A stretch of 64,000 nucleotides of DNA, from IMG/VR virus record IMGVR_UViG_3300021430_000575, positions 19,401 through 83,400 of that record; one strand, given 5' to 3'. The translations under genes and the position numbers were made by a program. The notes beneath the pieces were generated by a model that was not told the origin of the DNA, did no database searches, and saw only the letters and a list, made by a program, of their open reading frames with translations. Shown piece after piece: positions 1,692-16,793 of this stretch. Every line of letters begins with the position of its first letter. The first letter of the stretch is position 1. The DNA is from a virus (taxonomy: Duplodnaviria > Caudoviricetes).

Positions 1692-1776
1692 TGGTGGGCA
1701 AGGTTGGACTCGAACTTGCCCACCGTACGGCAATGTCCTCTAAGACTATCTCAGCTACCAGCTACGACACATCTGC
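1692..1776 (-). pseudogene. Degenerate/chimeric tRNA-Leu(TAG)
   Basis: Leu-like 5' body GCAGATG...GTCTTAGAGGAC...GTTCGAGTCC, but 3' strand CTTGCCC-A-CCA does not pair with GCAGATG; 5' end overlaps the last codons of the HNH gene. Confidence 0.6.
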
Positions 1777-2214: not shown

Positions 2215-2229
2215 AATAATAACCTGTAA

Positions 2230-2454: not shown

Positions 2455-2689
2455 GATCTATATTCGCCAAGATAAAAAATGTTCGATCGTCATCGTTTTC
2501 AAAAATAAACATATTAGCCGGTCTAGAAATATCTAATCTATTCATAGTTTGAGGAATCCATTTGGTATCTAGGTCCCATTTATTACCTCGTAGACTGATA
2601 TGGTCATTACACCATCGAATCATATTATTAATTTCAGCACGATTATATGATAACGGAACCACATAATTAATATTGGTAAATCTATTCAT
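2447..2689 (-). CDS. Hypothetical protein (80 aa)
   Basis: ORF; WC...G..W pattern similar to 2230..2454. Confidence 0.6.
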   Translation of the reverse strand: MNRFTNINYVVPLSYNRAEINNMIRWCNDHISLRGNKWDLDTKWIPQTMNRLDISRPANMFIFENDDDRTFFILANIDRV

Positions 2690-2733
2690 TGTATACTTTT
2701 ATAATGAATAATATTTCTAGTCAATGAATAAAA

Positions 2734-2808
2734 TGGAGGACCGTGTGAGGCTCGAACTCACCGGTGTCGGATTAAGAGTCCAACTGACCCACCCGGGTGC
2801 TACGGTCC
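2734..2808 (-). tRNA. tRNA-Lys(CTT)
   Basis: GGACCGT/ACGGTCC-T-CCA, TTGGA-CTCTTAA-TCCGA, TTCGAGC T-loop. Confidence 0.9.
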
Positions 2809-2814
2809 ATAAAT

Positions 2815-2901
2815 TGGCTGCCCCTCTAGGATTCGAACCTAGACTGAAGTTATCTCTACAGATTCAAAGTCTGTCTGCCTACCAATTAGCATCAAGGGGC
2901 A
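2815..2901 (-). tRNA. tRNA-Gln(TTG) with long variable arm
   Basis: TGCCCCT/AGGGGCA-G-CCA, ACAGA-CTTTGAA-TCTGT, variable region AGAGATAACTTCAGT, CTAGG-TTCGAAT-CCTAG. Confidence 0.9.
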
Positions 2902-2911
2902 ATAATTTCAA

Positions 2912-3250
2912 CTACTTTTTTTCAAACTTTTTCTTTAGACGAAGATATTCTCTTTTTTCTGCGGCTAAAGTCTTTTTATCTTTTTCTTCTTTTTTTGCTT
3001 TTTCATGCGCTAGAGCACTTTCATATCTTGCAATACGTTCATTCATTTCTAGATCAGTTTCTGGCTCATACCAGACTAGATTGACGTTGCAGTCTTCATA
3101 ATACCAATCGAGTTCAATTGTAGCTTTTGTATTGTTGTTGCAGATCTTTAAGATATCACCGAGCGACATTGAATCTGAGATATCATGCTCTCGTCTAACA
3201 TCCTGTCGCTTTTTATAATCATATTTTTCTTTAGCCATATTGCACACCAT
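2912..3250 (-). CDS. Hypothetical protein with charged helical C-terminus
   Basis: 112-aa ORF. Confidence 0.65.
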   Translation of the reverse strand: MVCNMAKEKYDYKKRQDVRREHDISDSMSLGDILKICNNNTKATIELDWYYEDCNVNLVWYEPETDLEMNERIARYESALAHEKAKKEEKDKKTLAAEKREYLRLKKKFEKK

Positions 3251-3376
3251 ATAAAAATGAATACTCTAACTTACCCCAGATTCTATATATAGTATCAATT
3301 GTCCAAATACTTTACAAGAGTTGGAATAAGTTTAATTATTTTACAATAAAATTGTTTGTATATATAATTTATAAAT

Positions 3377-4108
3377 ATGTCAATACATCAAATAAATTAT
3401 TTTAATTTTAACTTTCTTAATAACAAATATACAAAATGGTATATTACTATTATTCAAAATGCATTAGCAAGAGATGAGGTTACATCTTATACTGAAATTC
3501 ATCATATTATACCACGGTCATTTGGCGGTTCTAATGACAAAAGTAATTTAGTTAAACTTCTAGCTAGAGAACATTATATAGTACATTTATTATTGCCTAA
3601 AATGGTTGCTGGACAACACAAACATAAAATGCAAGTGGCGTTATGGAATATGATGATTAAATCTAAAGATAGGTATATACCACATAATAAACAATATGAG
3701 ATCATTAAAAAAAATATGGCAATAGCATTATCTGTGTTACATAAAGGTAAAGAATCAAAACTTAAAGGTAGACCAAACAATAAAATACCATGGAATAAAG
3801 GTTTAACAGGAGTGCCCAGACATTATACAGAAGAAGGGATGAAGAAATTAAGAGCACCTAAAAGTGATGAAACTCGAAAACGTATTAGTCAAAGTATTAA
3901 AAATCGTAAAACTAAAAAAGGGTACACCCCCGCACCAAAAATGAAATTTATATTAAAAAATATAATAACCAACGAAATTGCGGAAACTACCAATATAACA
4001 AAATGGTGTAAAGAAACCGGTTTCAACTCAAGTTGGTTGTATCGAGATAAAAGCAATTGGAAGATTATTGAAAAATATAAACTTAAAGATGGGTCTAAAA
4101 TTTTATAG
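3377..4108 (+). CDS. HNH homing endonuclease with NUMOD3-like motifs
   Basis: EIHHIIPRSFGGSNDKSNLVKLLAREHYIVHLLL; PKSDETRKRISQS repeat; opposite strand to the tRNAs. Confidence 0.85.
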   Translation: MSIHQINYFNFNFLNNKYTKWYITIIQNALARDEVTSYTEIHHIIPRSFGGSNDKSNLVKLLAREHYIVHLLLPKMVAGQHKHKMQVALWNMMIKSKDRYIPHNKQYEIIKKNMAIALSVLHKGKESKLKGRPNNKIPWNKGLTGVPRHYTEEGMKKLRAPKSDETRKRISQSIKNRKTKKGYTPAPKMKFILKNIITNEIAETTNITKWCKETGFNSSWLYRDKSNWKIIEKYKLKDGSKIL

Positions 4109-4119
4109 GCAAGAAATAT

Positions 4120-4203
4120 TGGAAGACCGGTGAGGTTCTGCCCCTCTTACGGGAGGATTAAAAGTCCTCTGGCGAGACTACTCTGCCTTTACGTTACCGG
4201 TCC
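4120..4203 (-). tRNA. tRNA-Lys(TTT), enlarged D region, atypical T-loop
   Basis: GGACCGG/CCGGTCT-T-CCA, GAGGA-CTTTTAA-TCCTC, T-loop GGCAGAA. Confidence 0.8.
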
Positions 4204-4409
4204 ATTACTTATAATTTCACAAACTAAGCCTTGTTCTTCATAGTTTAGCCTAGTCCAAGTTTTACTATACATGTCTGATGCAGCTTTAAACTGCTTAATT
4301 GAGTCTTTATTATTCCAATCTACTGGAAGGGTGTCAAGTACTCGATAGTATAAATCTACTACTTCTTGTAGGCGTCCTGCGGTGTCATATTATCAACCTC
4401 CTATAAAAT

Positions 4410-4497
4410 TGGGGGACCGGGAGGGAATTGAACCCATCCGTGCCTGTTAAGGCGGGAGATTAAAAGTCTCCTGTCAACACCAGTCGACAACCGGTCC
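4410..4497 (-). tRNA. tRNA-Lys(TTT) with long variable arm
   Basis: GGACCGG/CCGGTCC-C-CCA, GGAGA-CTTTTAA-TCTCC, variable arm GCCT-TAAC-AGGC, TTCAATT T-loop. Confidence 0.85.
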
Positions 4498-4526
4498 GTT
4501 ATCTCATTAACAACAGCAGTATAACA

Positions 4527-4663
4527 CAGGTATTATGCTTTTCCTAGCATATTCATCTAGCATCCTAGATGTACCTGCTAAATTTTAAAATACATAGTTA
4601 GTCTTATTCTTCGAGCAGGTATATCGACTATACCACCTTGGTAGGTAATTGCGCACTATGTAT
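4527..4663 (-). ncRNA. Two adjacent structured spacer RNAs
   Basis: 4590-4663: closing ATACATAGT/ACTATGTAT with inner GGTATA/TATACC. 4527-4577: three-way junction CAGGTA/TACCTG, CATCTAG/CTAGATG, ATGCT/AGCAT. Confidence 0.5.
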
Positions 4664-4666
4664 GAT

Positions 4667-4743
4667 TGGCGACTCTTAGGGGTACTGCCCCCCTCATTTC
4701 CGCCGTGACAGGGCGGCGTCTTCACTATGCAGACCCAAGAGCC
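4667..4743 (-). tRNA. tRNA-Asp(GTC), atypical T-loop
   Basis: GGCTCTT/AAGAGTC-G-CCA, CCGCC-CTGTCAC-GGCGG, AGGGG-GGCAGTA-CCCCT. Confidence 0.85.
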
Positions 4744-4753
4744 AATATAAATC

Positions 4754-5371
4754 TTATTTTGATATTTTTCTACCTTTATACCATCCAACCGGAATTTCAT
4801 CATTCTTCATTATTGATTTAGATGTTAGTCCGTTGGTGATCCACATTTTACCGTACTGTGAATTATTCTTACCAGTCTGCTTACCTTTTAGTGCAGCAAA
4901 TATTTTTTGTTTGCTATCTAATGTATGATGTTTACCTTTAAAGGTATCGTATCTTAATAATCCAAGCTTATGCCATTCTCTTAATCGTTTTGATCCTGCC
5001 GGATTTTTACGTCCTATATTTCCTTGTTGCAATTTTTTTATAATAGCGGAAACATCTCTTTTAGTATTGTTTAGATTGTTTCTATTAATATAGCTAAATC
5101 CACCGTGTCCACCTTCACATATATTATATGTATCTTTACGTAAACAAAATTCTTCTGTGACCAATTCTTTTTCTTTATTATTCATTTCATTTTCAGTTTT
5201 AAAAACAAATAATATTTCGTTTTTAAAATTGTTAATACCATATTTCTTTATGGCTCTTTTAAGAAGCTTCCCAGATCCAAAATAATCATCATTTATATCT
5301 TTAGTTTTATGTTTACCAATATAAATCTTATTATTGATTAAATTGGTTATTTGATAAATGATATAGTATAT
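4754..5371 (-). CDS. GIY-YIG homing endonuclease (Seg-like), probable ATA start
   Basis: Track ORF starts at 5185, but the frame is open upstream through YYIIYQITNLINNKIYIGKHKT...YFGSG; first codon after SD GAGGT is ATA (5371-5369); 206 codons including stop. Confidence 0.8.
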   Translation of the reverse strand: MYYIIYQITNLINNKIYIGKHKTKDINDDYFGSGKLLKRAIKKYGINNFKNEILFVFKTENEMNNKEKELVTEEFCLRKDTYNICEGGHGGFSYINRNNLNNTKRDVSAIIKKLQQGNIGRKNPAGSKRLREWHKLGLLRYDTFKGKHHTLDSKQKIFAALKGKQTGKNNSQYGKMWITNGLTSKSIMKNDEIPVGWYKGRKISK

Positions 5372-5378
5372 CTCTTTA

Positions 5379-5432
5379 CCTCTGTTTTCTATGAATAAGT
5401 CTTACATATTGCTTATTTATAAAAAACAGAGG
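5379..5432 (-). promoter_or_regulatory. RBS-sequestering hairpin containing a TATAAATA late-promoter motif
   Basis: CCTCTGTTTT (5432-5423) pairs with AAAACAGAGG (5388-5379, contains SD); TATAAATA at 5421-5414 in the 5' arm. Confidence 0.7.
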
Positions 5433-5438
5433 CCTATG

Positions 5439-5518
5439 CGCCGACGACGGGATTCGAACCCGCCTTGCTGTAAAGCCCTGTTAGACAGACAGGTGATCTC
5501 CCCGAGATCTACGTCGGC
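5439..5518 (-). tRNA. tRNA-Asp(GTC) with variable arm, CCA not encoded
   Basis: GCCGACG/CGTCGGC-G, CCTGT-CTGTCTA-ACAGG (pyrimidine at 37), variable arm GCT-TTAC-AGC, GCGGG-TTCGAAT-CCCGT. Confidence 0.8.
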
Positions 5519-5576
5519 ATAAATCAGTATTCTATTTTACAATATGAAATGCAATGACATGTCGAGACAAACTTTA

Positions 5577-5963
5577 TTATATCCAATCTGATTTATGTTG
5601 AATATAGTATGGATTATTATCTTTTTTGTAATGCACACCTTCAACTTTGCTTCCTTTAGCTTTATTGCATGCTGTGCATAATATTTGAAGATTGTTCAAA
5701 TCTAATCTTGAATCCCAAAAATATCTAACAGGTTTTATATGATCAATATTTAGATATTTTTGATTTGAATCGTTTAGGTTTCCTTGACACCCATTACATA
5801 CCAATTCTTTATTTTGAAGAAACTCTTTTCGACATTCCTTCCATTCATGAGAATGATAAAAGTCATATATTTCATCATATGACTTGTTTGAGTATTTAGT
5901 AACCGATACATTATGATTATGAACCGTTATGTACTGTTTTCTACGCTTTTTATAAAATGACAT
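5577..5963 (-). CDS. HNH endonuclease (McrA-like zinc-finger HNH)
   Basis: CNGC...LNIDHIKPVRYFWDSRLDLNNLQILCTACNKAKG. Confidence 0.85.
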   Translation of the reverse strand: MSFYKKRRKQYITVHNHNVSVTKYSNKSYDEIYDFYHSHEWKECRKEFLQNKELVCNGCQGNLNDSNQKYLNIDHIKPVRYFWDSRLDLNNLQILCTACNKAKGSKVEGVHYKKDNNPYYIQHKSDWI

Positions 5964-6000
5964 GCAATATATGTAATATAATATTTTTGATATTGCAAAA

Positions 6001-6078
6001 TGGAGCGCCCGGTGGAATTCGAATCCACACTATCTTCTGCTTCGTAGGCAGATGCTTATCCAATTAAGCTTCGGACGC
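6001..6078 (-). tRNA. tRNA-Arg(ACG)
   Basis: GCGTCCG/CGGGCGC, TCTGC-CTACGAA-GCAGA, TTCGAAT T-loop, CCA. Confidence 0.95.
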
Positions 6079-6088
6079 ATAAAATCGT

Positions 6089-6160
6089 GCTAACCATTTA
6101 CCAGGTATACATAAAATATACCACCTATCGTCATCACATCACGAGGAGGAAGATGTTAGC
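6089..6160 (-). ncRNA. Structured spacer RNA
   Basis: Closing GCTAAC/GTTAGC, ACATC/GATGT hairpin, AGGTGGTATA...TATACCTG hairpin also present in the 4590-4663 element. Confidence 0.45.
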
Positions 6161-6174
6161 GTTCTTGTTAAATA

Positions 6175-6250
6175 TGGTGCCGCCCCTCGGGATCGAACCG
6201 AGATATCACGTTCTTCAGACGTGCGCCTGAACCATCACGGCCAAAGCGGC
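6175..6250 (-). tRNA. tRNA-Phe(GAA)
   Basis: GCCGCTT/GGGCGGC, CACGT-CTGAAGA-ACGTG, CTCGG-TTCGATC-CCGAG, CCA. Confidence 0.95.
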
Positions 6251-6258
6251 ATTTAAAT

Positions 6259-6334
6259 TGGCTCCCAGGGAGGGCTTCGAACCCCCAACCACCCGGTTAA
6301 CAGCCGAGGGCTCTACCGATTGAGCTACCTAGGA
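6259..6334 (-). tRNA. tRNA-Asn(GTT)
   Basis: TCCTAGG/CCTGGGA, CTCGG-CTGTTAA-CCGGG, canonical D and T arms, CCA. Confidence 0.95.
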
Positions 6335-6351
6335 ATAAAACTTTACTAAAA

Positions 6352-6484
6352 TGGCGGTAACATGTGGATTTTAACCACAAGCCTAACATTCTGTAGAATG
6401 GTCTTTGATTTATACTCTAATTATCAAAGTTTTATAGGCTCATACTCATCTGAGTGGAGTATGCAATCCCCTGCTTATGTTACC
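6352..6484 (-). ncRNA. 133-nt tRNA-like RNA with a branched domain in place of the anticodon arm
   Basis: Acceptor GGTAACA/TGTTACC-G-CCA, T-arm TGTGG-TTAAAAT-CCACA, internal helices ATACTC/GAGTAT, GAGCCTA/TAGGCTT, CTTTGAT/ATCAAAG, CATTC/GAATG. Confidence 0.8.
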
Positions 6485-6490
6485 ATAAAA

Positions 6491-6564
6491 TGGTGCTCCT
6501 AAGAAGAATCGAACTTCTATTACTATCGTACCAGGATAGTGTAATACCATTATACTATGGGAGC
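6491..6564 (-). tRNA. tRNA-Thr(GGT)
   Basis: CTATC-CTGGTAC-GATAG, AGAAG-TTCGATT-CTTCT, CCA. Confidence 0.95.
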
Positions 6565-6572
6565 ATTAAACT

Positions 6573-6664
6573 TGGTGGGAAGTAGCTCGAATTGAACGGC
6601 TTGCCAAAAGAGGAGCGAGGTTACAGCTCGCCGACGGGACCACCCATCCTTATTGATACTTCCC
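6573..6664 (-). tRNA. tRNA-Tyr(GTA)
   Basis: GGGAAGT/ACTTCCC, GCGAG-CTGTAAC-CTCGC, long variable region, TTCAATT T-loop, CCA. Confidence 0.85.
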
Positions 6665-6670
6665 TTAAAT

Positions 6671-6747
6671 TGGCGTCCCCAAGCGGCGACAATCCGCTTC
6701 CTTGACCTTGAGAGGGTCACGATCTAATCTACGTAATCTATGGGGAC
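6671..6747 (-). tRNA. tRNA-Glu(CTC), atypical T-loop
   Basis: GTCCCCA/TGGGGAC, TGACC-CTCTCAA-GGTCA, AGCGG-ATTGTCG-CCGCT, CCA. Confidence 0.85.
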
Positions 6748-6810
6748 AAAATTCTGTGGGCGCCCCGCAAGTGGGTCATTTAAGGATAGGTTCTTACCAT
6801 CCCCCAATAT

Positions 6811-6887
6811 TGGCGTTCCCAGACGGCGACAATCCGTCTCCTTCGCCTTGAAAGGGCGACGATCTAATCCACGTAATCTATGGGAAC
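6811..6887 (-). tRNA. tRNA-Glu(TTC), atypical T-loop
   Basis: GTTCCCA/TGGGAAC, TCGCC-CTTTCAA-GGCGA, GACGG-ATTGTCG-CCGTC, CCA; paralogue of 6671..6747 with compensatory changes. Confidence 0.85.
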
Positions 6888-6889
6888 AA

Positions 6890-7300
6890 ACTAGTATTTG
6901 TGATGGGATTCACACCCATATTTCCGGCCTCCAAATGCAAATGCTAATGGCCAGCGTGTTAAGTTAGAAACGGCCTTCAAAACCCCTCATATATACTCTG
7001 CAATTTTTCCTAATGCTTGACTTGTCTAGGCGCTGCCCCTAGCTCGACGTTTTTATAGCCTTTGCATTTAATATCAAACATTTTTACTAGAATGGTTTGT
7101 ATATACTACTCATTCCTACTACCCGTTAATTCAATTACACTACACAAAGCTCAGTAATTAAAAAAACTTATCCAGGACTTTCACCCGGTGTGAGCATCAC
7201 GCTCTCAGATAGATTTCTCATTCTACCACCGTTGGAGATCGGGTTAATGCATTGAGTTCGTAATTTACAAATTATACTCAACTACCTCTAACATGCATCA
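6890..7300 (-). ncRNA. Non-coding region with several T-arm-like hairpins
   Basis: ATGGG-TGTGAAT-CCCAT, CTAGG-GGCAGCG-CCTAG and CCGGG-TGAAAGT-CCTGG 5-bp/7-nt hairpins plus TTGAGT/ACTCAA; no convincing ORF. Confidence 0.45.
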
Positions 7301-7353
7301 AAGTCTATCTTATCAACACATTAGCCAACTTCGTTCTGTTAAAGCACACAATA

Positions 7354-8115
7354 TTATCCTGTGTGCTTTTTAAATACCTCATAAAATTCACTGTCAACGT
7401 CATCTATATTGGCAGCGATCATTGCAAATCTATCGAAAGGATCAAGGCCTTGTTGCAGACGATGCGAAATCTTTTCTATGTCAGTATAAGTTGAATTATT
7501 AAATTCTTGATGTGAAAAATTTTCTATTTTGGTTTTTATATCTTCTGGTGACCCCCAAAAGCTTAGATGATACCCAGCATTTTTAGCTGCGGCCATTTGC
7601 CATCTTTGATCTCTCAACTGTTGAGCAGTGAATTTATTCATTAATGCTTTTTTGCAAATTACAGTACCACACCAATCCTGCGGTATATACTGACTAAAAT
7701 TATAATAATATGTACGTTGTTCAGCTGTTACAGAATCAAATTTATCTAACAACTGTATAAAGTCTGGTAACAATTGTTTTAAAGGAATTTCATCTAGGTC
7801 ACTGATCATAACAACAGCATTGTTGTCAAATAACTTGACTACTTGATCTATATGTCCTCGTTGAGCAAATTCAATTTGCCAATTAAAATTATCATGGAAT
7901 AATGTTGTATCAATAGTTATCGGTTGATAAATTATTTTATCTAAATATTTCTTATATCGTTTTATATTACTTAGAAAATTAAGAGGCTTTTTCTTTCCTG
8001 CAAAGGTAATATCTGCTTCTACTATGACAAAATAGTCAACTGAATCATAAAGATATTCTAGTCGACCTTCCAGTAGATCTAATTCTCTAAAAAATGTAAA
8101 ACAATCAATTATCAT
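7354..8115 (-). CDS. Glycosyltransferase family 17-like (beta-1,4-GlcNAc transferase-like)
   Basis: IIDCFTFFRELDLLEGRLEYL...FVIVEA..TF.G..KPL; SDLDEIP; YHLSFWG...IKTKIENFSHQE. Confidence 0.8.
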   Translation of the reverse strand: MIIDCFTFFRELDLLEGRLEYLYDSVDYFVIVEADITFAGKKKPLNFLSNIKRYKKYLDKIIYQPITIDTTLFHDNFNWQIEFAQRGHIDQVVKLFDNNAVVMISDLDEIPLKQLLPDFIQLLDKFDSVTAEQRTYYYNFSQYIPQDWCGTVICKKALMNKFTAQQLRDQRWQMAAAKNAGYHLSFWGSPEDIKTKIENFSHQEFNNSTYTDIEKISHRLQQGLDPFDRFAMIAANIDDVDSEFYEVFKKHTG

Positions 8116-8601
8116 CTATTCTACTTGCCAATCATATGATTCTCTAATGTAATCTGGTAACCCGTCTAAAGAATTGTTAAACTTTGGCCAATTGGAAAAA
8201 TTACCTGTATTTTCTAAAAGCAAATGCCATCCAGTTGGCTGTAATGGACTATAATAAGAGCTAAGAGTTTTTAAATCAAATGGTTTTATAGTACCGTCTT
8301 TATACCATGATTTTGTAAATCTTGATAATCCTTTAACCACTTCTTGCATATCTGATGAATGAATGTCCCCCAATAATAACTGTGGGTGATTTAATCTAGT
8401 TTTAAAAAACCAAAGCATCTTTGAAAATATTTTTTGTCCTCTATAGTCTTTATTAACCCATACATGATCTACTATTGGTATATATTCATTATTTAATGAT
8501 GCCATTGCTACAAAAATAGCATTATCCCATAGCGAATAAAAATTGTTATATTTTTTTACAACAAACTTGTCTATATCGCCTATATGGTCACATATTTTCA
8601 T
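8116..8601 (-). CDS. Hypothetical protein with GNAT-like motif A
   Basis: HVWVNKDYRGQKIFSKML resembles an acetyl-CoA-binding motif; TAAATA 5 nt upstream of ATG. Confidence 0.55.
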   Translation of the reverse strand: MKICDHIGDIDKFVVKKYNNFYSLWDNAIFVAMASLNNEYIPIVDHVWVNKDYRGQKIFSKMLWFFKTRLNHPQLLLGDIHSSDMQEVVKGLSRFTKSWYKDGTIKPFDLKTLSSYYSPLQPTGWHLLLENTGNFSNWPKFNNSLDGLPDYIRESYDWQVE

Positions 8602-8696
8602 ATAAGTATTTAGTTACCGGTTTAATGGAGAGCCGGCATCCAGGATAGTATCCGCCAGTCCATTTTTATCTTGCGAATGGTAATGAACACCCAATA

Positions 8697-8775
8697 TGGT
8701 CAAGGTGGAAAGATTTGAACTTTCGATCTCCAGTTTCCAAAACTGGCGGGGACGGCCAGACTCCCCTACACCCTG
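8697..8775 (-). tRNA. tRNA-Pro(TGG)
   Basis: CAGGGTG/CACCTTG, CCAGT-TTTGGAA-ACTGG (A37), GAAAG-TTCAAAT-CTTTC, CCA. Confidence 0.9.
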
Positions 8776-8806
8776 TTATTTTTATCTATAGATATAAATT
8801 GTAAGA

Positions 8807-8842
8807 TCCAAGGCCGGCACTCTTCTTCTGAGCTACACCCTG
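8807..8842 (-). pseudogene. 5' half of a second tRNA-Pro(TGG)
   Basis: CAGGGTG-TA-GCTC-AGAAGAA-GAGT-G-CCGGC-CTTGGAT, then unrelated sequence; starts immediately after the stop of 8843..9547. Confidence 0.65.
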
Positions 8843-9547
8843 TTAATTCTTTGTTAGCACACAGCTTACCATAGTATGGTTCCCTAGTCCCTGATATTTC
8901 ATACTATTAAAAGTATAGCCGTGCCGTTTGGCTATAAATCGTACAGCGCCTTCGGTTATCTGCCGATATGGAACAGCCATATTACCACGACGATGCTCAT
9001 ACATTTTTATGCCTAGCCTATTCATCCATTTAATAATACAGGTATTATGTTTGCCGCCGCCGCCACCGCGTGTTGAGACAACTAGTATAATGACCTCTAC
9101 ATTATTTTTGCATGCTTTTTCTAAAAAATCTATATGGTAATCCTGTAAACATTTTACATCATCGAAATCAATCAATGATATCTTGTGTCCCAACGCCCAC
9201 AACATTTCGGCTTGGTTAATTAAATTAGCCTCTACAACTTGACCTTTGAAGCCAAGTTCCTGTTGAGCCTTACGTAATGTCCAATAGGTTTCCCAATCCC
9301 AATCGATCATAAATAGATTTTCTTCTCGAATTCCATTAGCTAAATGCTCATCGATGTGCCGTTTCAGTTGACCGCCGTACCCGGGTATACACAACCCAAC
9401 TCCGTCAAACGTTTTATTCTTAAACGTATTTTGTATAAGAGCAGTCTGACGTAAACAGGTAAGAATCTTACCAGGACTTGTGGTATCAGTATATGCAAAT
9501 TTTGCAGTTTTGCTTGCCATATATATATATCTCCATATTTCACACAT
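8843..9547 (-). CDS. Hypothetical protein, possibly Rossmann/methyltransferase-like fold
   Basis: 234-aa ORF; likely start at ATG 9520 after SD GGAG; GVGLCIPGYGG...LFMIDWD...ISLIDFD only weakly suggests the fold. Confidence 0.6.
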   Translation of the reverse strand: MCEIWRYIYMASKTAKFAYTDTTSPGKILTCLRQTALIQNTFKNKTFDGVGLCIPGYGGQLKRHIDEHLANGIREENLFMIDWDWETYWTLRKAQQELGFKGQVVEANLINQAEMLWALGHKISLIDFDDVKCLQDYHIDFLEKACKNNVEVIILVVSTRGGGGGKHNTCIIKWMNRLGIKMYEHRRGNMAVPYRQITEGAVRFIAKRHGYTFNSMKYQGLGNHTMVSCVLTKN

Positions 9548-9587
9548 AACGCTAACATGTGTGCATGTTGAAAAGCAAGGATAAAGT

Positions 9588-9664
9588 TGGTTGCGGGAGG
9601 AGCGATCGCATCTCCGTCCGATAGAGTATGAATCTATCCATCTACTGTCTGATTGTATCCCGCG
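9588..9664 (-). tRNA. Initiator-like tRNA-Met(CAT), atypical
   Basis: C1xA72 mismatch (CGCGGGA/TCCCGCA-A-CCA), loop TTCATAC; stem ATAGA/TCTAT lacks the three G-C pairs of initiators. Confidence 0.75.
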
Positions 9665-9671
9665 ATAATAA

Positions 9672-10000
9672 AATGAAGCAACCGTTATCTCCCATTATCG
9701 GGAACCCTCTAGCGCACTAGCTGGCGGAATATCATTTTTGATATTTAGGCATGATTAAGCCCATTGCTTCGTTGTCTCTGATATTAGTTAGATCAAGTTG
9801 AAATAGTATGAAACACAATATAGAATAACGGTTTATCAGATCGTTCCTTATATTACATTTTCTATACTATTTCAATTATGTAATAAAAAGAGGATTGACC
9901 ATTTGAGCGCATACGCGTCTACCTTTTCAGGCCGTGCCATCGTTAGTGGATGAATAACATGTATTCCACAACGTCCCAATGACTAAACAATCCCAAGTCT
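9672..10000 (-). ncRNA. Three consecutive structured spacer elements
   Basis: GAAGCAAT/GTTGCTTC multibranch (~9673-9771); inverted repeat TTGAAATAGTAT/ATACTATTTCAA (~9798-9875); GGGATTG/CAATCCT multibranch with CCT-GAAA-AGG (~9890-9995). Confidence 0.5.
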
Positions 10001-10011
10001 CTATGATATAT

Positions 10012-10084
10012 TGGTACCGGCTATTCGTACTGCCCGAATCTCGGATGGCGTTATGAGCACCACCGGGTCCTTGACCAAACCGGC
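10012..10084 (-). tRNA. tRNA-Met(CAT) (elongator Met or Ile2 not resolved), atypical T-loop
   Basis: GCCGGTT/AGCCGGT, TGGTG-CTCATAA-CGCCA, ATTCG-GGCAGTA-CGAAT, CCA. Confidence 0.8.
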
Positions 10085-10091
10085 ATAATAT

Positions 10092-10167
10092 TGGTTGGCC
10101 CGGCAGGTCCTGCCCCTGCGACCTCAGACTTATCAGGTCTGTGCTCTACTAACTGAGCTACGAGCCA
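10092..10167 (-). tRNA. tRNA-Ile(GAT), atypical T-loop
   Basis: CAGAC-CTGATAA-GTCTG, GCAGG-GGCAGGA-CCTGC, canonical D-arm, CCA. Confidence 0.9.
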
Positions 10168-10178
10168 TCGAAATAATT

Positions 10179-10254
10179 TGGGGTGCATAGTGGGTTCCGC
10201 CCCCACCTAAACAGAGTCACAGTCTGCCGGCTACACTAGCTGCCTCTACGCACC
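10179..10254 (-). tRNA. tRNA-His(GTG), atypical T-loop
   Basis: Encoded G-1 and C73, GCAGA-CTGTGAC-TCTGT, GTGGG-GGCGGAA-CCCAC, CCA. Confidence 0.9.
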
Positions 10255-10327
10255 ATAAGCTTTTTGAGACATATGGCTATATAATCTTTTTCAAAGAAAG
10301 ATCTAGTTACTCTATACATTTCAAAAT

Positions 10328-10401
10328 TGGCAGGTCGACCAGGTATTGAACCCGGGCTAAAAGTTTTGGAGACTCTTGTGCTACCATTACACCACCGACC
10401 T
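10328..10401 (-). tRNA. tRNA-Trp(CCA)
   Basis: AGGTCGG/TCGACCT, AGAGT-CTCCAAA-ACTTT, CCGGG-TTCAATA-CCTGG, CCA. Confidence 0.95.
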
Positions 10402-10448
10402 ATATAAACTGTTTGATTAAACAAACGATTTTTCTGCGTCAAATTATG

Positions 10449-11036
10449 TCATTCGCCAAAATCATGTTTTGTTAAATTATACCACAATTCAGCTGAATAA
10501 AATTTTCTACGTTCAATTATTTTGTAATTGTTTTTTTTATCTTTCCATTCGTTTATTCGATGTTGTTTTGCTACTAATCTAGCTTTCTTTTTTTGTTCAT
10601 TAGGTCGTAGAGTAGTCTTACTCTTCTTTACAATGTTGATTGTTTGTATGGTGTACCTTTTTTCTTTAATTGCTGTACCGGCAAATGTATTCTTCTTATT
10701 TGATGTACTTACCTTAATAAACACGTTTCCAAAAACGTCAGACGTTGTTATGCTGTTAACACTAACATGTTTGAAACATTCAGTTGACCCGCCTGAATAT
10801 AACCAATTAATTGGAACATATTTCTTAGCCTTAAATCTGTTGTGTAACTTTTTCTCGTGATCAAATGCAACTTTTGGGCTTAACTCTTTTGAGAGAGCCA
10901 ATGTTTCAATTTTAAATTGATTTAAATCTTTTGCAAATCTTTCCTCAATAGATGTCGATGTTACACCAATTTTATAAAATTCTTCAAAATTGTGTTCATC
11001 GAGCGAGGTAAATTTTAATAGATATACTTTCCACAT
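10449..11036 (-). CDS. T5orf172/MUG113-like (GIY-YIG superfamily) nuclease
   Basis: FYKIGVTSTSIEERF...HEKKLHNRF...GGSTECF. Confidence 0.7.
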   Translation of the reverse strand: MWKVYLLKFTSLDEHNFEEFYKIGVTSTSIEERFAKDLNQFKIETLALSKELSPKVAFDHEKKLHNRFKAKKYVPINWLYSGGSTECFKHVSVNSITTSDVFGNVFIKVSTSNKKNTFAGTAIKEKRYTIQTINIVKKSKTTLRPNEQKKKARLVAKQHRINEWKDKKNNYKIIERRKFYSAELWYNLTKHDFGE

Positions 11037-11095
11037 GCTTTAATGTAACACATATCTATTAAATTGCAATCTCTTAATACGGCAAGGCGGTTCTT

Positions 11096-11284
11096 CACCC
11101 TGCTAACCTTTAATCACCGTTCGGTGGTGCGCCACGTAGCGCACTTTATGCACTGGTATTATATAGAACATACCAGTTATTGACCCCTGTACATTCAGTG
11201 CCAACTCACCCTTTTTCATCTACGCTACAAATGCATCAAACTATATCGGCATAACCATATAGCCACGTAGTATCCCAGCAGGTG
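11096..11284 (-). ncRNA. Candidate ~190-nt multibranch RNA at the head of the tRNA transcript
   Basis: Closing CACCTGCT/AGCAGGGTG with CTACG/CGTAG, CTATATGG/CCGATATAG, TTGGC/GTCAA, ACTGGTAT/ATACCAGT, GTGCGC/GCGCAC and CACCG/CGGTG. Confidence 0.6.
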
Positions 11285-11429
11285 CTCAACAGTCCTTATT
11301 TGTTTTAGTTTTTTAACGTAGACCAAGTAGACCGCATCTAAACTACGTTTTAAAAATTCTATCTATTCATTCCTTGCAACTATCTAATCTCCTATCAATA
11401 CATCTTTGTTAACTATTTTGCTGACCAAT

Positions 11430-11463
11430 AAAAAACCCGGTAAGTTTGTTAGTCTTTACCGGG
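11430..11463 (-). terminator. Intrinsic terminator (attenuator 3:4 hairpin)
   Basis: CCCGGTAAAG-ACTAACAAA-CTTACCGGG followed by TTTTTTATT. Confidence 0.85.
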
Positions 11464-11496
11464 GTCTTGTCAGCTTTTTTGTGTTATCACATTACA

Positions 11497-11592
11497 CTAG
11501 CGGACAAGACCTCCCACAGGCTTATAATTCCAGGCCTGGCGATCTTCATTTTTACTAATAAAGAGCATATGTGTAGTCATTTGTGAACTCAT
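11497..11592 (-). CDS. Putative attenuator leader peptide MSSQMTTHMLFISKNEDRQAWNYKPVGGLVR
   Basis: Hand-translated 31-codon ORF (below track cut-off); AAGGA upstream; alternative ATG at 11580; overlaps 1:2 and 2:3 helices; TAG stop just before the antiterminator partner. Confidence 0.75.
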   Translation of the reverse strand: MSSQMTTHMLFISKNEDRQAWNYKPVGGLVR

Positions 11593-11633
11593 TTATCCTT
11601 TGTTAAAATTTGTGTGTTGTTTCCAACGTAGTC

Positions 11634-11663
11634 TATTTATACTGTATTTATTTATAATGTCAA
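11634..11663 (-). promoter_or_regulatory. sigma70-type promoter driving leader and tRNA array, with overlapping TATAAATA motifs
   Basis: TTGACA (11663-11658), 16 nt, TATAAA (11641-11636); TATAAATA at 11656-11649 and 11641-11634. Confidence 0.7.
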
Positions 11664-11701
11664 TTAGTTTTCTTGGTGAATCACGTATTTTTTAATTCTT
11701 T

Positions 11702-12076
11702 TTACCAACAGCGTCCTGCACGACATCCGTACCATGGTCTCGGGCCACCCCAAATAGGTGGAAGATAAACAGGAGGTGCTACATATACAGGCGGTGCTAG
11801 TATAACCGGGGCAGGCGCTACATATACAGGCTGAGGTGCTACATATACAGGCGGTGGTGTAGTATAAATCACTTGCGGCGGAGGATTATTAACAATGATT
11901 GGCCGCGGTGGAGGATTATTAATCACCACCGGAGGACTGTTTGGTTGGACAACCACAGCAGGACTGTCAACCACAATAGGAGGAGGACCATAGTCTACTC
12001 GCACCACTCCTGCTGGTACTGCAGGAGCACATCCATTTATTAAAAATCCAATGGCAAGTACAATATAACTATTCAT
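11702..12076 (-). CDS. Proline-rich putative lipoprotein (PVYVAP repeats)
   Basis: Lipobox-like FLINGC after a hydrophobic stretch; repeated PPVYVAP. Confidence 0.7.
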   Translation of the reverse strand: MNSYIVLAIGFLINGCAPAVPAGVVRVDYGPPPIVVDSPAVVVQPNSPPVVINNPPPRPIIVNNPPPQVIYTTPPPVYVAPQPVYVAPAPVILAPPVYVAPPVYLPPIWGGPRPWYGCRAGRCW

Positions 12077-12089
12077 ATTAATATTTATA

Positions 12090-13730
12090 TTAGCTAGAAA
12101 TCGTTGGTTTTACAACCTCATTCATAATTTTATTAATAGCTATTTCACCACCTGGTGTAGTTTCAAACGGCAATGAGTATGTGTCAAGTAGTTCTTTGAC
12201 TTTAATATCAAATCTCACAGCTTCAAGTTCATCTTTTTGATTTCTGCCTACTGGGTCATAGGTAAAATGTCGCTGTAATATGTAATTATAATTTTCATAT
12301 TCGTTAAAAACTTCCAGTACTAGGTTAGTAAAGTTTTTGCTAGTATATTCTGGTTTTACATATATAAGTCCCAGAGGAATTGGGCTGTCTGTGATTACCC
12401 AATCTATATTATGATTCTTTAGCCGTGCAATACGTCTTTGTTGTTTGGCAAATATATAAATTTGATCGTCAAATAAATCAACACGTCTTTCCCAGACAGC
12501 TTCTTTGGCATACTCTGTTACCAGTTCAACGCTGAGTTTTGATTTTTTCATTTCGTAAAAAAGTCCGGCGGCCGTTGTAGAATTATGTGTAACCACATAA
12601 TTATCAGTTACGTATAAATGATCTGTATGGTCAATCATAATACATTGAACTTCAGTTGTTCTAGAATATTCTATACTTTTGATTCTCAATTTTAAATCAG
12701 AATATTGGTAATTTTCTGGTAGTCGATTCATTTTTCTCGTAAGTTTACTTAATTTTCTTGGCTTGGGATATCTAATACAAACATTATAATTAATTTTACC
12801 AGATTCTTTTATACCTTTATACGTATATTTTGGGAATTTTTTTAATATTTTTGCTTGCCCTCCAAGTGACCAAATAATTTCTTGTATATCTTTAGCCAAT
12901 TGTTCGCTAGATGTAGAAATAGAAATGCTACCGCTTTTACAGACATACCCGTCAGAATCTACTAACCCGGCAATCAAATCTTCTTTTTGTGAAGTTGAAC
13001 CACGTTTATATAAATCTGGAATAAATTTGGTATATGAACGTGTACCAAATAATCCCAAATCAAATAATGATTTTTTATAGCAATTTCTAAAAACATTTCT
13101 TTTTCCTTGACCTTTAACAGATTCTGTAGGGTCTATGAACCTAATATTATATCCGTATTTTTGTGGCATTTTATGTATTTTATACTTTGACGATATCTTA
13201 TTGGACATTAAATTTACTATTTCATAGTCATTAGTTGTAAAAGATGTCAATGCTCGTTTACTTGAAAAGCATCCGTCCCCTAATAAAAAACCAAGAACCC
13301 ACGGATCAATTGGTAAAGGTATATCTATGGCATTTAAGTTTCTTACCATAGGTATTCTAAAAATTTGTGTTTTATTAGTCTTTAATTTATCCATCATCCA
13401 TTCTAATGATACGGTTTTATAATCTAATTTTCGCCCTGTATAATTGGATCTCGTCTTATAAGTATTGCCATATTTTCCATATATCTTCCAAAGATGATCT
13501 TTACAACATTCAACCGATCGGCCGTCAATAAATGTAATTTTATACACATCCTTAATCCCTTGTGGATATACTCCTACTACTTTTGAAACCTCTCCGTTTG
13601 GCACAGTAACAGTGGTTCCAATTTTTATATCCTTCATCTGTTTCCACCCATCAGGAGTCAAAACGTTTGCGTCTAATGGCTGAGCCTTCCCTGTTCCTGG
13701 GCCACCGAAGAGATTAATTACTTTCATCAT
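12090..13730 (-). CDS. P-loop nucleotide kinase (AAA_28/NadR-like) with intein
   Basis: Extein INLFGGPGTGK|STTAAGLF...ELVTEYAKE...ITDSPI. Confidence 0.85.
   Translation of the reverse strand: MMKVINLFGGPGTGKAQPLDANVLTPDGWKQMKDIKIGTTVTVPNGEVSKVVGVYPQGIKDVYKITFIDGRSVECCKDHLWKIYGKYGNTYKTRSNYTGRKLDYKTVSLEWMMDKLKTNKTQIFRIPMVRNLNAIDIPLPIDPWVLGFLLGDGCFSSKRALTSFTTNDYEIVNLMSNKISSKYKIHKMPQKYGYNIRFIDPTESVKGQGKRNVFRNCYKKSLFDLGLFGTRSYTKFIPDLYKRGSTSQKEDLIAGLVDSDGYVCKSGSISISTSSEQLAKDIQEIIWSLGGQAKILKKFPKYTYKGIKESGKINYNVCIRYPKPRKLSKLTRKMNRLPENYQYSDLKLRIKSIEYSRTTEVQCIMIDHTDHLYVTDNYVVTHNSTTAAGLFYEMKKSKLSVELVTEYAKEAVWERRVDLFDDQIYIFAKQQRRIARLKNHNIDWVITDSPIPLGLIYVKPEYTSKNFTNLVLEVFNEYENYNYILQRHFTYDPVGRNQKDELEAVRFDIKVKELLDTYSLPFETTPGGEIAINKIMNEVVKPTISS
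12582..13685 (-). mobile_element. 368-aa intein with LAGLIDADG endonuclease, class 3 signature
   Basis: Starts AQPLDA, ends VVTHN before Ser+1; HLW (block B), VQCIMID (block F), THN (block G); LGFLLGDGC and IAGLVDSDG motifs; inserted between K and S of Walker A. Confidence 0.9.
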
Positions 13731-13736
13731 TGTCCT

Positions 13737-14540
13737 CTATATTCTGGTTTCTAGTTCTTGTCTCACAGCTTCTATCAACTCTGGATTATAATTCTCGTGT
13801 TTATCTTTGAAACAGTCCATATTTTCCAGAGCCCACATGTAGTAGTCTGTGGGAATTTCTTTAAATTTCTTGCCTTTATATTTTCCAAATGGCCATGACA
13901 CCACAGGAAATGCCTGCCAGCAAAGTTTATTAATCTGTTTGCCAATATCAGGCGAATCAGTTACAATGCCTCTTTCTAGAGCAGTGTTTACCAGGAATTC
14001 AAATAATTTGCTGCATACATAGGTATCATCATGTGCTCTATGTACTCCAGTTGAATCATCAACTGGTAAATCAAACCTATAGCGTAGGTAGCTGAGGTTA
14101 TATTGCATGTTAGGAAAGTCAACTGTAAATAGTTGTTTAGCCAATCTATGTGTGCATATCCACCGACCGCGGTCTTGTGTAATCACACATTGTTTGACCT
14201 CGTCGGCCATGATCCATGCACGCCCTAGAACTTCCTGGTCGTAAAAGGAATTATGAGCTACCCAGTAACTGGTGTCAGTCCAGTGAAGTATTTCTTTTAC
14301 CAATGGTACAGAATCTGCAAAAGTTGGTTTGCCAGCGATCATTCGCTGACTGATATTATTCTTAGCGCTGGCTTCGGGCGGAATAGGATCACGACTTCCT
14401 AACAGCGTACTTTGCACTTGCCAATCGTTATCTTTATAACGTGCGCCGGCAATTTCTACTATTTCTGCTTTTTCTGGGACAAGATGTGTTGTCTCTGTAT
14501 CGACGACTGTGACAGTCTTAAAAAAATTTTCTTTGTGCAT
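13737..14540 (-). CDS. DEDDh 3'-5' exonuclease, exodeoxyribonuclease X-like
   Basis: VVDTETT, VAHNSFYD, HRAHDD motifs; C-terminal WPFGKYKGKKFKEIPTDYYMW. Confidence 0.85.
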   Translation of the reverse strand: MHKENFFKTVTVVDTETTHLVPEKAEIVEIAGARYKDNDWQVQSTLLGSRDPIPPEASAKNNISQRMIAGKPTFADSVPLVKEILHWTDTSYWVAHNSFYDQEVLGRAWIMADEVKQCVITQDRGRWICTHRLAKQLFTVDFPNMQYNLSYLRYRFDLPVDDSTGVHRAHDDTYVCSKLFEFLVNTALERGIVTDSPDIGKQINKLCWQAFPVVSWPFGKYKGKKFKEIPTDYYMWALENMDCFKDKHENYNPELIEAVRQELETRI

Positions 14541-14581
14541 AAAGAACTATTATGCAGTACCACCGGCTATGTCTAGATTTA

Positions 14582-15049
14582 TTAAGTAATTCTTTCAATT
14601 CCGTTGCCATAATAATGAAATTTACAGTAAAAATAATTGGTTGAGTTTTGTAAATTTTGTATATTCATCCAATAGGTAACATCATTTTTGATTACATGGT
14701 AAATGTTAGCAGGTTTCAATTGATCTTGCTGAATATCAAAAATATGAAAATTCCAATCAACTCCATTAGGGTTCATATTTACGCTGGCCTGTGTTTGTCG
14801 TGGGCTAGCTGTTATGCTTGTACCTGCTGCTTCTGCGCTGGGCCAGCAGCGCATACCGGGTATCCACACATTAATATATGGTGTATTATTAGCCAGTGTA
14901 ATTACCAATTGATGCCAACGAGGGCGTAGATACCAGGGAAAACAAAGAGTTTTGCTTGGTCCTATTGTATAAGTATAATCTTCTTCGTTTAATTGTGTAA
15001 CTATGCTGGCACCTTGCGGCAAGCCACCTGAGTAATACTGTCTAACCAT
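14582..15049 (-). CDS. Hypothetical protein
   Basis: 155-aa ORF, TAAATA 4 nt upstream. Confidence 0.7.
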   Translation of the reverse strand: MVRQYYSGGLPQGASIVTQLNEEDYTYTIGPSKTLCFPWYLRPRWHQLVITLANNTPYINVWIPGMRCWPSAEAAGTSITASPRQTQASVNMNPNGVDWNFHIFDIQQDQLKPANIYHVIKNDVTYWMNIQNLQNSTNYFYCKFHYYGNGIERIT

Positions 15050-15104
15050 ATTATATTTATTATCAAAATCTACTCATAAATATACAATAATTTGAGGTAT
15101 TCAT

Positions 15105-15542
15105 ATGAGTATATACACCTATCCGGTAATTGATGTCCAACTTCCTTCGTATACAGCAGGAGTATGGACTCCTACGTTAGAATTTAACGGTTCATCAGCT
15201 GGAATCATCAGCGATATTGCAGCAGGTACTTATTCATTCTTGTTTAACACAGTATTCTTTGAGCTATATATAAAACTATCCAGTAAAGGTGTAGCCACTG
15301 GCAACGCTACTATTGGCGGATTACCGCAGCTATCGTCAGTATATAGTGGCGACGGACGTATGGTTACGTATAGAAATATGTCAGGAGTAACATCTCCGGG
15401 TGGGTTTATTATGCCCAATGCTGGAAGCATAAATCTAACCAGTTCAACTTCCACAGAAACAGTAAACTTAACTGATGCCAATTTTACTGATACAACTGAG
15501 TTTGCGCTTTCCGGATACTACAGATTTGTAGAAATTAGCTAA
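15105..15542 (+). CDS. Putative virion/tail-fibre-associated protein
   Basis: GVWTPTL...GTYS...VFFELYI...ATIGGLP resembles fibre C-terminal beta domains; ATAAATA and SD GAGG upstream. Confidence 0.6.
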   Translation: MSIYTYPVIDVQLPSYTAGVWTPTLEFNGSSAGIISDIAAGTYSFLFNTVFFELYIKLSSKGVATGNATIGGLPQLSSVYSGDGRMVTYRNMSGVTSPGGFIMPNAGSINLTSSTSTETVNLTDANFTDTTEFALSGYYRFVEIS

Positions 15543-15569
15543 ATATTCTATTAAACGTGGACAAACAGC

Positions 15570-16793
15570 ATGACAGTTAACAGCAAAGTAAATCCTAATT
15601 TTCCCATACCGGGGATTGACCAAAGTAGTCGTGGGTTTCGAGACAATTTCGCAACCATTAAAGAAGAAATTGAAAATCTTCAGACAAAACAAATTCAATT
15701 AACTGGTACAATAGTGGGAGGTCCAGCACAAATTGGCGACGGTACAGGAGATGTTGTCATTGAAACATCTCTTAACATAACCAATGTGCCAGCGGCTGGT
15801 AGTAACTTGTCAATACAAATAAATGATTCTGGGCTGTTAGCTGGCTCAAATATGTTTTGGGTTGATAACAAAGTAGGTATTAACACATCATTACCGGCTT
15901 ATACTCTTCATGTTATTGGTAATGCAAATATTGCAGGAACTTCTAACACTGCTAGTTTATTTCTAGGACCTAATTTTGAAATTACCTCAGAAACCAACAC
16001 AAGTAATATTATTGTAAATGATTTAAAAGTTATTCAATTTACGCATCAATATGGCAACGTAGGCATAGGTACTGCACCCAGTACAACATTTGATGTTTTT
16101 TCAGTAAATGGCGATGTAGCACATTTCATAGCCGGAAAAGATGTAAACGATAATACAATAAGATTTAGTACATCTAATAACAGTACTGCCGGTGTAGTTC
16201 TAGAACAAGTAACTGCTAATAAACTTGGTGGTATGAGAATTGATCAATCTGGCAATGTTTCTATTCATGTAAACGAAAGCAGTGGAGCCAACCTATCCGA
16301 TGCAAGCAGAGTAATCAATATTTTAACAAATAATAATGTCGGTATTGGTAGCATGATTCCACAAAAACAATTGGATGTTCAAGGAAATGTTAAAATTACC
16401 GGACAATTGGAATTTTCAAATGCATCAGTGAATAGCGGAATAGTATTTCCCGATGGCAGTTTTCAAACTGTTGCTGGCGGAGGCGGTACTACTTCTAGTA
16501 GTACACGTTCTCTTACCTTAGATGATATTGGTCGTTACATTGTTTCGACAACTGCTGGATCAGAAACTATTACATTACCTACCGATTTGGCACTGGCATG
16601 GCCAGTTGGAGCCAGGACCAGTATTGTATTAACCGGAGCAGGAACTGTAAGTATTAGTCCAGATATAGGTGTTAGTCTTTATCTTGCAGGGATTGGAACT
16701 ACTGGAGCCAGAACACTTGCTACTTATGGGCTAGCAACAATTGTTAAAATAGCAGCCGACACTTGGTATATCAGTGGTGATGGTATATCATAA
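15570..16793 (+). CDS. Tail-fibre-like virion protein
   Basis: N-terminal NPNFP..DQ.S.GFRDNFA.IK shared with 48313..54198; VGIGT/VGINT repeats. Confidence 0.7.
   Translation: MTVNSKVNPNFPIPGIDQSSRGFRDNFATIKEEIENLQTKQIQLTGTIVGGPAQIGDGTGDVVIETSLNITNVPAAGSNLSIQINDSGLLAGSNMFWVDNKVGINTSLPAYTLHVIGNANIAGTSNTASLFLGPNFEITSETNTSNIIVNDLKVIQFTHQYGNVGIGTAPSTTFDVFSVNGDVAHFIAGKDVNDNTIRFSTSNNSTAGVVLEQVTANKLGGMRIDQSGNVSIHVNESSGANLSDASRVINILTNNNVGIGSMIPQKQLDVQGNVKITGQLEFSNASVNSGIVFPDGSFQTVAGGGGTTSSSTRSLTLDDIGRYIVSTTAGSETITLPTDLALAWPVGARTSIVLTGAGTVSISPDIGVSLYLAGIGTTGARTLATYGLATIVKIAADTWYISGDGIS

Follow-up and report, generated by a model that had tools for sequence, protein, structure and literature searches.

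A conserved leader-ORF and terminator module at the head of tRNA arrays in uncultured giant phages: a proposed gauge of decoding

The module and its neighbourhood

The window described here is a 64,000-nucleotide stretch of DNA that forms part of an 83.4-kb fragment from an uncultured virus, with an estimated completeness of 32%. It carries a self-contained element of about 240 nt, which consists of a promoter, a short leader open reading frame (ORF) and three hairpins, the last of which is an intrinsic terminator. All of these features are on the minus strand. The -35 hexamer (11658..11663) was read in the sequence, and the alignment shows that it is invariant in all 12 of the complete family copies described below. 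The -10 hexamer (11636..11641) follows after a 16-nt spacer and is kept in most copies; the window version ends in A. An earlier note on this DNA had proposed this pair as a promoter, and it is present on the strand and with the spacing described there. A simple promoter and terminator scan listed neither the promoter nor the terminator of the module.

The promoter region displays a repeated pattern. An A+T-rich 8-mer that contains the -10 hexamer is found at 11641-11634, and a second copy directly follows the -35 at 11656-11649. The 6-mer right after the -35 is invariant in 12 of 12 family copies, and either of the two elements could act as the -10. The 8-mer, which resembles the T4 late-promoter motif, is not over-represented in the window (eight found versus about 11 expected). 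Elsewhere in the window it occurs at 3370 and 56539 on the plus strand and at 12089, 47908 and 5421 on the minus strand, and four or five of the six occurrences outside the promoter sit just upstream of ORF starts.

The 5' untranslated region has a purine-rich, Shine-Dalgarno-like pentamer (11596..11600) that is conserved in all of the copies. The leader ORF itself (11497..11592) has 31 codons and a TAG stop at 11499-11497. However, the start that is conserved in the family is the second ATG of this ORF (11580-11578), which gives a leader of 27 codons. The pentamer is about 14 nt ahead of the conserved start, a larger distance than is usual for a classical ribosome-binding site; a strong ribosome-binding site is also absent from most genes of this phage. 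The spacing is therefore not decisive, because ribosome-binding sites are weak throughout.

The first of the three hairpins, P0 (11515..11539), lies within the ORF and covers approximately codons 14-22 of the 27-codon frame. The second, P1 (11461..11514), is an antiterminator-like two-tier hairpin with its 5' arm at 11514-11503 and its 3' arm at 11471-11461. The terminator (11430..11463) has a stem at 11463-11436 with a 12-nt loop, followed by a U6 tract at 11435-11430. The 216-nt module RNA folds with a z-score of -4.2 relative to dinucleotide shuffles. Downstream, the first gene of a same-strand tRNA array is tRNA-Trp (10328..10401, minus strand), which was found by ARAGORN and Rfam.

Two minus-strand genes precede the module. 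Directly upstream is a 124-residue proline-rich ORF with PXPV repeats (11702-12076), for which no relative was found in the viral contigs and which is absent at the same place in the related contig L002. Next to it is a gene for an AAA_28-type ATPase (12090-13730), which an intein that carries a LAGLIDADG homing endonuclease divides in two. The ATPase orthologue in L002 (2556-3095) is uninterrupted, encodes 179 residues and is 62% identical over the exteins.

A family of related modules

The syntenic contig L002 was found by way of a neighbouring exonuclease gene, and it has a homologous module directly after its ATPase gene. The family search used the ATPase as an anchor in viral and metagenome contigs, followed by blastn, nhmmer and a covariance model. 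The result is 12 complete copies of the module, namely the window and 11 other contigs of uncultured giant phages, which represent nine lineages; an additional copy, in L097, is 92% identical to the window and is cut by the end of its contig. The promoter, ORF, P0, P1 and terminator are in the same order in all 12 copies, all of the modules are downstream of the shared ATPase gene, and every ORF has 25-27 codons from the conserved start, with its own promoter and its own in-ORF hairpin. The homologous modules are a real, conserved element of uncultured giant phages, and the family is small, with nine lineages.

Searches beyond these contigs gave no further members. GenBank phages had no match by blastn when the window element and two family members were used as queries, and an exact 17-mer scan of the viral contigs found nothing. 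A covariance-model search of 68 loci and nine further whole records gave no new members. In an Rfam cmscan of window positions 1-16000 (E <= 1), no match fell within 11430-11663, including no His, Thr, Trp or Leu leader and no T-box, and Rfam at gathering thresholds gave only tRNAs in eight related loci. The module is absent from complete distant relatives that have 52-58 tRNAs. The array heads of two distant complete relatives have no small ORF with a terminator. Two small-ORF-plus-terminator matches inside arrays are probably 3' ends of longer ORFs rather than leaders.

Position ahead of the tRNA genes

The earlier note had suggested that similar leaders be sought upstream of tRNA arrays in related phages, and the modules were found at just such array heads. 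The clearest example is a complete genome of 453 kb. Its single copy of the module is at 414765-414928 on the minus strand, and 43 of its 45 tRNA genes are on the same strand immediately downstream, at 378.8-414.5 kb. The module is also single-copy in the record from which the window was taken. The first tRNA starts 135-830 nt after the terminator in the relatives; when the window is included, the first same-strand tRNA is 135-1030 nt downstream.

In the window, 14 tRNA genes were found by ARAGORN and about three to four more by Rfam. All of these are on the minus strand and downstream of the module, and nine more tRNAs lie beyond the edge of the window in the same record. Thus, the earlier statement that 23 tRNAs follow the module on its strand was correct with respect to strand and position, but the count of 23 was not reproduced.

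A single attenuator is unlikely to control tRNAs over 30 kb or more of DNA. The region extends over 30-36 kb and has intervening ORFs, and therefore most of its tRNAs probably have other promoters. One candidate for a separate signal is a conserved element of about 21 nt, located 20-30 nt past the terminator in eight of 10 lineages (L099 1355-1380, L096 6185-6210, L087 11205-11230, L005 11820-11845, L008 7415-7440 and L002 3590-3612, for example) and absent from the window and L091. It is followed by a stretch whose end, right ahead of tRNA-Tyr, forms a strong G+C hairpin. The element could be an independent transcription start signal; it scores as a poor sigma-70 promoter. Taken as a whole, the 390 nt after the terminator in the window (11040-11429, minus strand) show no significant structure (z = -1.45).

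The genes that immediately follow the terminator display some other patterns. In the window, and only there, the terminator is separated from the first tRNA, about 1 kb away, by a 195-residue ORF (10449-11036, minus strand); the match of this ORF to the T5orf172 domain is weak (E = 0.0027) and does not reach the Pfam cut-off. This ORF may be a mobile insertion, because no relative has such an ORF at that place. In other relatives, the module is followed first by an intact tRNA-Tyr gene; in L087 (approximately 11395-11700) and L002 (approximately 3765-3935), tRNA-Tyr-like genes are apparently disrupted by an insert located past the anticodon region, and the L087 insert carries an ORF.

The leader open reading frame

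The conserved ATG is present and frame 0 is open in nine of nine lineages, while the +1 frame is open in three of nine and the +2 frame in none. From base composition alone, the probability of an open frame is 0.16-0.35 per lineage. The lower 5' arm of P1 always ends at the stop codon. The upstream ATG, in contrast to the conserved one, is variable: it lies in frame, four codons ahead of the conserved start, in the window, L097 and L098-L100, and L002 has CTG at the position of the first ATG of the window.

These observations bear on the simplest alternative, which is that the module is transcribed from its own promoter as a small non-coding RNA, about 170-200 nt long and folded into three hairpins, and that the open frame is incidental. 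In its favour, the folds are strong and conserved (z about -4), and the nucleotides around the start codon are conserved as well. However, an incidental frame does not agree with a frame 0 that is open in every lineage while the others are closed, with a conserved ATG and a stop that is fixed relative to P1, or with the selection on amino-acid composition described in the next section; there is also no match to an Rfam family. We consider this explanation highly improbable.

Several relatives have tRNAs that could bear on the stop codon. CUA-anticodon tRNAs of the amber-suppressor type, which ARAGORN labels as Pyl, are present in four relatives (L002 11647-11722, L005 8854-8928, L087 9279-9353 and L091 8644-8717) and are upstream of the module in three of the four. 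In the window, L008 and L091 the leader ends in TAG, and suppression would extend the leader into P1.

Composition of the leader peptides

The earlier note had drawn attention to the window peptide because its 31 codons specify 19 of the 20 amino acids (there is no Cys), with 15 non-repeating residues in a row, and all of this is confirmed. Its estimate of about 6e-4 for 15 distinct residues in a row at uniform frequencies is arithmetically right. A background of real protein sequence was obtained from 60,721 25-residue windows in the 1,283 long ORFs that these loci contain; among these, a run of at least 15 has a probability of 0.0016, at least 18 distinct residues 0.0022 and at least 19 distinct residues 1.5e-4. 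The background windows average 13.1 different residues. The peptides of the nine lineages, with 25-27 residues each, are richer: they use 16-19 different amino acids (mean 17.9) and reach 14-17 within the first 18 positions.

Shared ancestry could in principle produce a similar result, and so the divergence between the peptides has to be considered. Their identity between lineages is 24-50%, with 6-13 aligned identities. When the residues shared with a reference are fixed and the rest are drawn from the background, six of eight lineages are above the expected diversity (p = 0.0003-0.04). A column-shuffle test preserves the composition of each alignment column: the peptides have 7.67 repeated residues each versus 10.09 +/- 0.39 after shuffling, and none of 20,000 shuffles was as low. 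The result stands when the poorly aligned window and L005 rows are left out and also when only the first 18 columns are used. With a rejection rate of 3% at a nominal 5%, the test is calibrated. Neutral drift simulated from a diverse ancestor gives 10.5-10.7 repeats. High diversity has thus been kept in the orthologues in spite of their divergence, and beyond what phylogeny would produce.

The few conserved residues, such as Trp, Pro and Gly, have their codons in the G- and C-rich hairpin arms of P0 and P1. Because of this coincidence, the constraint on them looks to be at the level of the RNA and not of the peptide. No conserved stall motif of the arrest-peptide type was found among the lineage peptides. 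The diversity tests, together with the location of the conserved residues in hairpin arms, lead us to conclude that selection appears to act on the composition of the peptide, that is, on the avoidance of repeats, and not on a peptide motif.

A second alternative should be weighed against these results. The ORF could be a free-standing micropeptide gene of 25-31 residues, in which case P0 and P1 would stabilise the mRNA or tune its translation, and its place before the tRNAs would reflect synteny and not regulation. The ORF is indeed conserved: two close relatives differ by one change in 75 nt within it, versus about seven changes in the 45-nt 5' region and about six in the 3' part, and a few residue positions are conserved in the family. 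However, the peptides have only the 24-50% identity mentioned above, their conserved residues are those encoded by the hairpin arms, and they match no Pfam or PHROG family. A functional peptide also does not predict a one-of-each composition, or that the arrangement of runs by which P1 competes with the terminator (see below) would be kept in all of the members. We regard a micropeptide gene as an unlikely explanation.

Other features of the codons are less informative. None of the leaders has runs of codons for the same residue, and so there are no clustered control codons. The use of both Lys codons, which the earlier note had pointed out in the window, does not hold up in the family, where pairs of the same residue differ in codon 53 times versus 50.2 expected, which is not significant. 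A match between the leader codons and the tRNA set of the phage is not demonstrable, because the leader and the array both cover nearly all amino acids. The idea that a leader without Cys mirrors a missing tRNA-Cys was rejected: the leader of the complete genome has no Cys, yet that genome has two tRNA-Cys genes.

RNA structure and the predicted switch

P0, P1 and the terminator fold in all members of the family. The terminator has a G+C-rich stem and U5-6; the base of its stem, which consists of a C-run and a G-run, and the U-tract are conserved in 12 of 12 copies. P0 is in the minimum-energy fold of all members, although its arm sequences differ, and it shares no bases with P1; it may be a pause hairpin.

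The 5' arm of P1 is formed by the last sense codons, right before the stop, and its 3' arm enters the C-run of the terminator. Folded alone, P1 reaches 3-4 nt into this C-run in every member. It precedes the terminator in the order of transcription, and it is also predicted to be the more stable of the two, with -21.5 kcal/mol for P1 folded alone versus -10.8 kcal/mol for the terminator stem in the window and -19 to -29.5 versus -11 to -18.5 kcal/mol across the members.

Evidence that P1 is maintained as a helix comes from a frame-anchored table. In every lineage, the C-run is paired with a G-run located 11-14 nt ahead of the stop. The next ten positions of the 5' arm have 1-5 pair types, including compensatory changes, which is covariation. 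All members keep the order of G-run, C-run and G-run through which P1 competes with the terminator. Alignment-based methods were less useful for this purpose. RNAalifold on a MAFFT alignment recovered only the terminator, as bulges shift the arms out of register, and the covariance model gave 76.9% paired positions versus 30-60% for slid partners, which is modestly above the controls. Since the covariance model kept the register of its seed, the frame-anchored folds of the individual sequences were used for the covariation of P1.

The three helices drawn in the earlier note are all located where it put them: 11546-41 with 11511-06 (called 1:2), 11511-03 with 11471-63 (called 2:3) and the terminator stem with its U6 tract. 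The proposal that 2:3 and the terminator exclude each other holds for the family in the sense that covariation is seen in the helix and that 3-4 nt of the terminator base are part of it in every member. As drawn for the window, however, the two share a single base and form together in the minimum-energy fold. If an A is bulged, 2:3 in the window gains two further G-C pairs into the C-run and the overlap increases to as many as 3 nt. The 1:2 helix, on the other hand, is present in the window, and nothing equivalent to it was found conserved in the family. The switch thus looks, from these folds, to have two states and not three helices, and because a conserved 1:2 helix is missing, an untranslated leader would be expected to read through.

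The effect of a ribosome was modelled by masking a footprint that extends 15 nt upstream and 12 nt downstream of the first A-site base and by calculating, from the partition function, the probability of the three basal terminator pairs. In this equilibrium model of the 12 copies, the basal pairs have a probability of 0.0-0.77 without a ribosome. With the A-site at codons 2-17, the probability is lowered for most positions, although the effect is not uniform and there are intermediate rises in some members. With the A-site anywhere from codon 19-20 through the stop, the probability is 1.0 in 12 of 12 copies in this model, which includes no kinetics. The modelled switch falls between A-site codons of about 17 and 20 in all 12 copies at equilibrium. 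Its amplitude is large in eight copies and small in the window (0.7 to 1.0), L005, L091 and L008; by this calculation, the window has one of the weakest switches in the family.

The loss of basal pairs beside the U-tract is known to impair intrinsic termination. The stop codon is about 62-65 nt before the U-tract, a spacing that resembles that of the trp leader.

Proposed mechanism

We propose that the module is a translation-coupled transcription attenuator that gauges the decoding of many amino acids on behalf of the tRNA array, and we would assign this reading a probability of roughly 0.6. The earlier note had interpreted the module in the window in a similar way, and its interpretation is supported by the location of the modules at array heads, the ORF that is open in nine of nine lineages, the diversity of the peptides and the overlap between P1 and the terminator. 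Translation of the leader, termination at the U-tract, the coupling of the two, read-through into the tRNAs and a trigger such as starvation or tRNA-cleaving host defences are the steps that we infer.

The proposed sequence of events is as follows. The promoter of the module would start a short transcript ahead of the tRNA array. A ribosome that reaches the end of the leader, which has 25-31 codons, would cover the 5' arm of P1, as this arm is made up of the last codons and the stop. With the arm covered, the C-run would be free, the base of the terminator would close and transcription would stop at the U-tract; the predicted effect of a ribosome on any of the last 7-8 codons is thus to free the terminator. 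If, instead, the ribosome stalled in the first 17-18 or so codons, or if there were no ribosome at all, P1 would form first, and it would be more stable than the terminator. By holding the C-run, P1 would deprive the terminator of 3-4 G-C pairs beside the U-tract, and the polymerase would continue toward the tRNA genes. Since 14-17 different amino acids, about one of each, are specified within this presumed stall-sensitive stretch, a shortage of almost any charged tRNA should raise read-through.

A further step is more tentative, although we think it quite possible. The leader may have been selected to have about one codon per amino acid, so that each run of a ribosome tests the whole pool of charged tRNAs, and the array would then be an inducible counter-measure, switched on when host anticodon nucleases or starvation deplete any tRNA.

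An attenuator of the same build could also report the overall capacity for translation, such as the state of ribosomes and elongation factors or the presence of toxins and drugs, and not individual charged tRNAs, with the diversity of the peptide serving another purpose or being a side effect. A two-state design without a conserved 1:2 helix, in which any failure of translation gives read-through, would suit such a function, and so would the lack of a detectable match between the leader codons and the phage tRNA set. A 26-gene tRNA operon of Anabaena is, moreover, induced by general translational stress (PMC8421152, PMC10272220). However, this explanation does not account for the avoidance of repeats within the peptides, which is far beyond the neutral expectation, and we judge it to be improbable in comparison with a gauge of the decoding of many amino acids.

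If the proposal is correct, the principle of attenuation would be extended from one amino acid to the whole decoding capacity and would be applied to the tRNA genes themselves. It would also provide a rare case of selection on the composition of a peptide and not on its sequence. Finally, because the element is self-contained and has only about 240 nt, it yields codon-by-codon predictions that can be tested without culturing the phage.

Relationship to known systems

To our knowledge, the regulation of phage tRNAs is essentially unknown, and literature searches for a leader or attenuator ahead of phage tRNA genes found nothing. Phage tRNAs are now viewed as a defence against host immunity that cleaves tRNAs (PMC10264068, PMC11464382), and the proposed mechanism fits this view, in which the phage counters the depletion of host tRNAs.

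The enterobacterial leaders, which sense translation with a short ORF, are similar in construction. The trp, his, leu, phe, ilvGMEDA and thr leaders resemble the module in having their own promoter, a short leader ORF, an antiterminator that competes with an intrinsic terminator and a comparable distance between stop codon and U-tract, and they use the position of the ribosome as the input, as is proposed for the module. Multivalent leader-peptide attenuators are also present among the enterobacterial amino-acid operons, as in ilvGMEDA and thr. There are also differences. The enterobacterial leaders have runs of control codons, whereas in the module 16-19 amino acids are specified by roughly one codon each; the module has no conserved 1:2 protector helix, and its competition is limited to 3-4 basal pairs of the terminator; and the genes downstream are tRNAs in a phage instead of biosynthetic enzymes. 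The module would thus work like a leader-peptide attenuator but without two of the classical features, clustered control codons and the 1:2 helix.

In leaders of the ermC, vmlR and toiL-topAI types, a ribosome that stalls in a short ORF redirects the folding of the RNA and relieves termination or occlusion. These leaders sense drug-bound ribosomes or arrest peptides, whereas the module has no conserved motif beyond the codons that are constrained by helices. T-box riboswitches report the charging of tRNA by a choice between a terminator and an antiterminator; they have no ORF and bind a single uncharged tRNA directly. The module, in contrast, has an ORF, and the search of window positions 1-16000 found no T-box match.

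The nearest published functional parallel is the trn operon of Anabaena sp. PCC 7120, which has 26 tRNA genes and is induced under translational stress (PMC8421152; PMC10272220). Both systems involve large tRNA arrays, and the Anabaena array is expressed more when translation is impaired, as is proposed for the array behind the module. The means of control are different, however. The Anabaena operon belongs to a cellular system and is controlled by a protein, the TrcR repressor, which acts on direct repeats over the -10 box and the start site (PMC8421152, PMC10272220), and the text of the paper mentions no leader, attenuator or terminator. The TrcR operator consists of tandem direct repeats over the -10 and the start and is bound by a repressor of the RHH type; in comparison, the promoter of the module has the two A+T-rich 8-mers at 11656 and 11641. 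Should the proposed mechanism be correct, the module would represent a general gauge of decoding, for which no counterpart has been described in cells or viruses.
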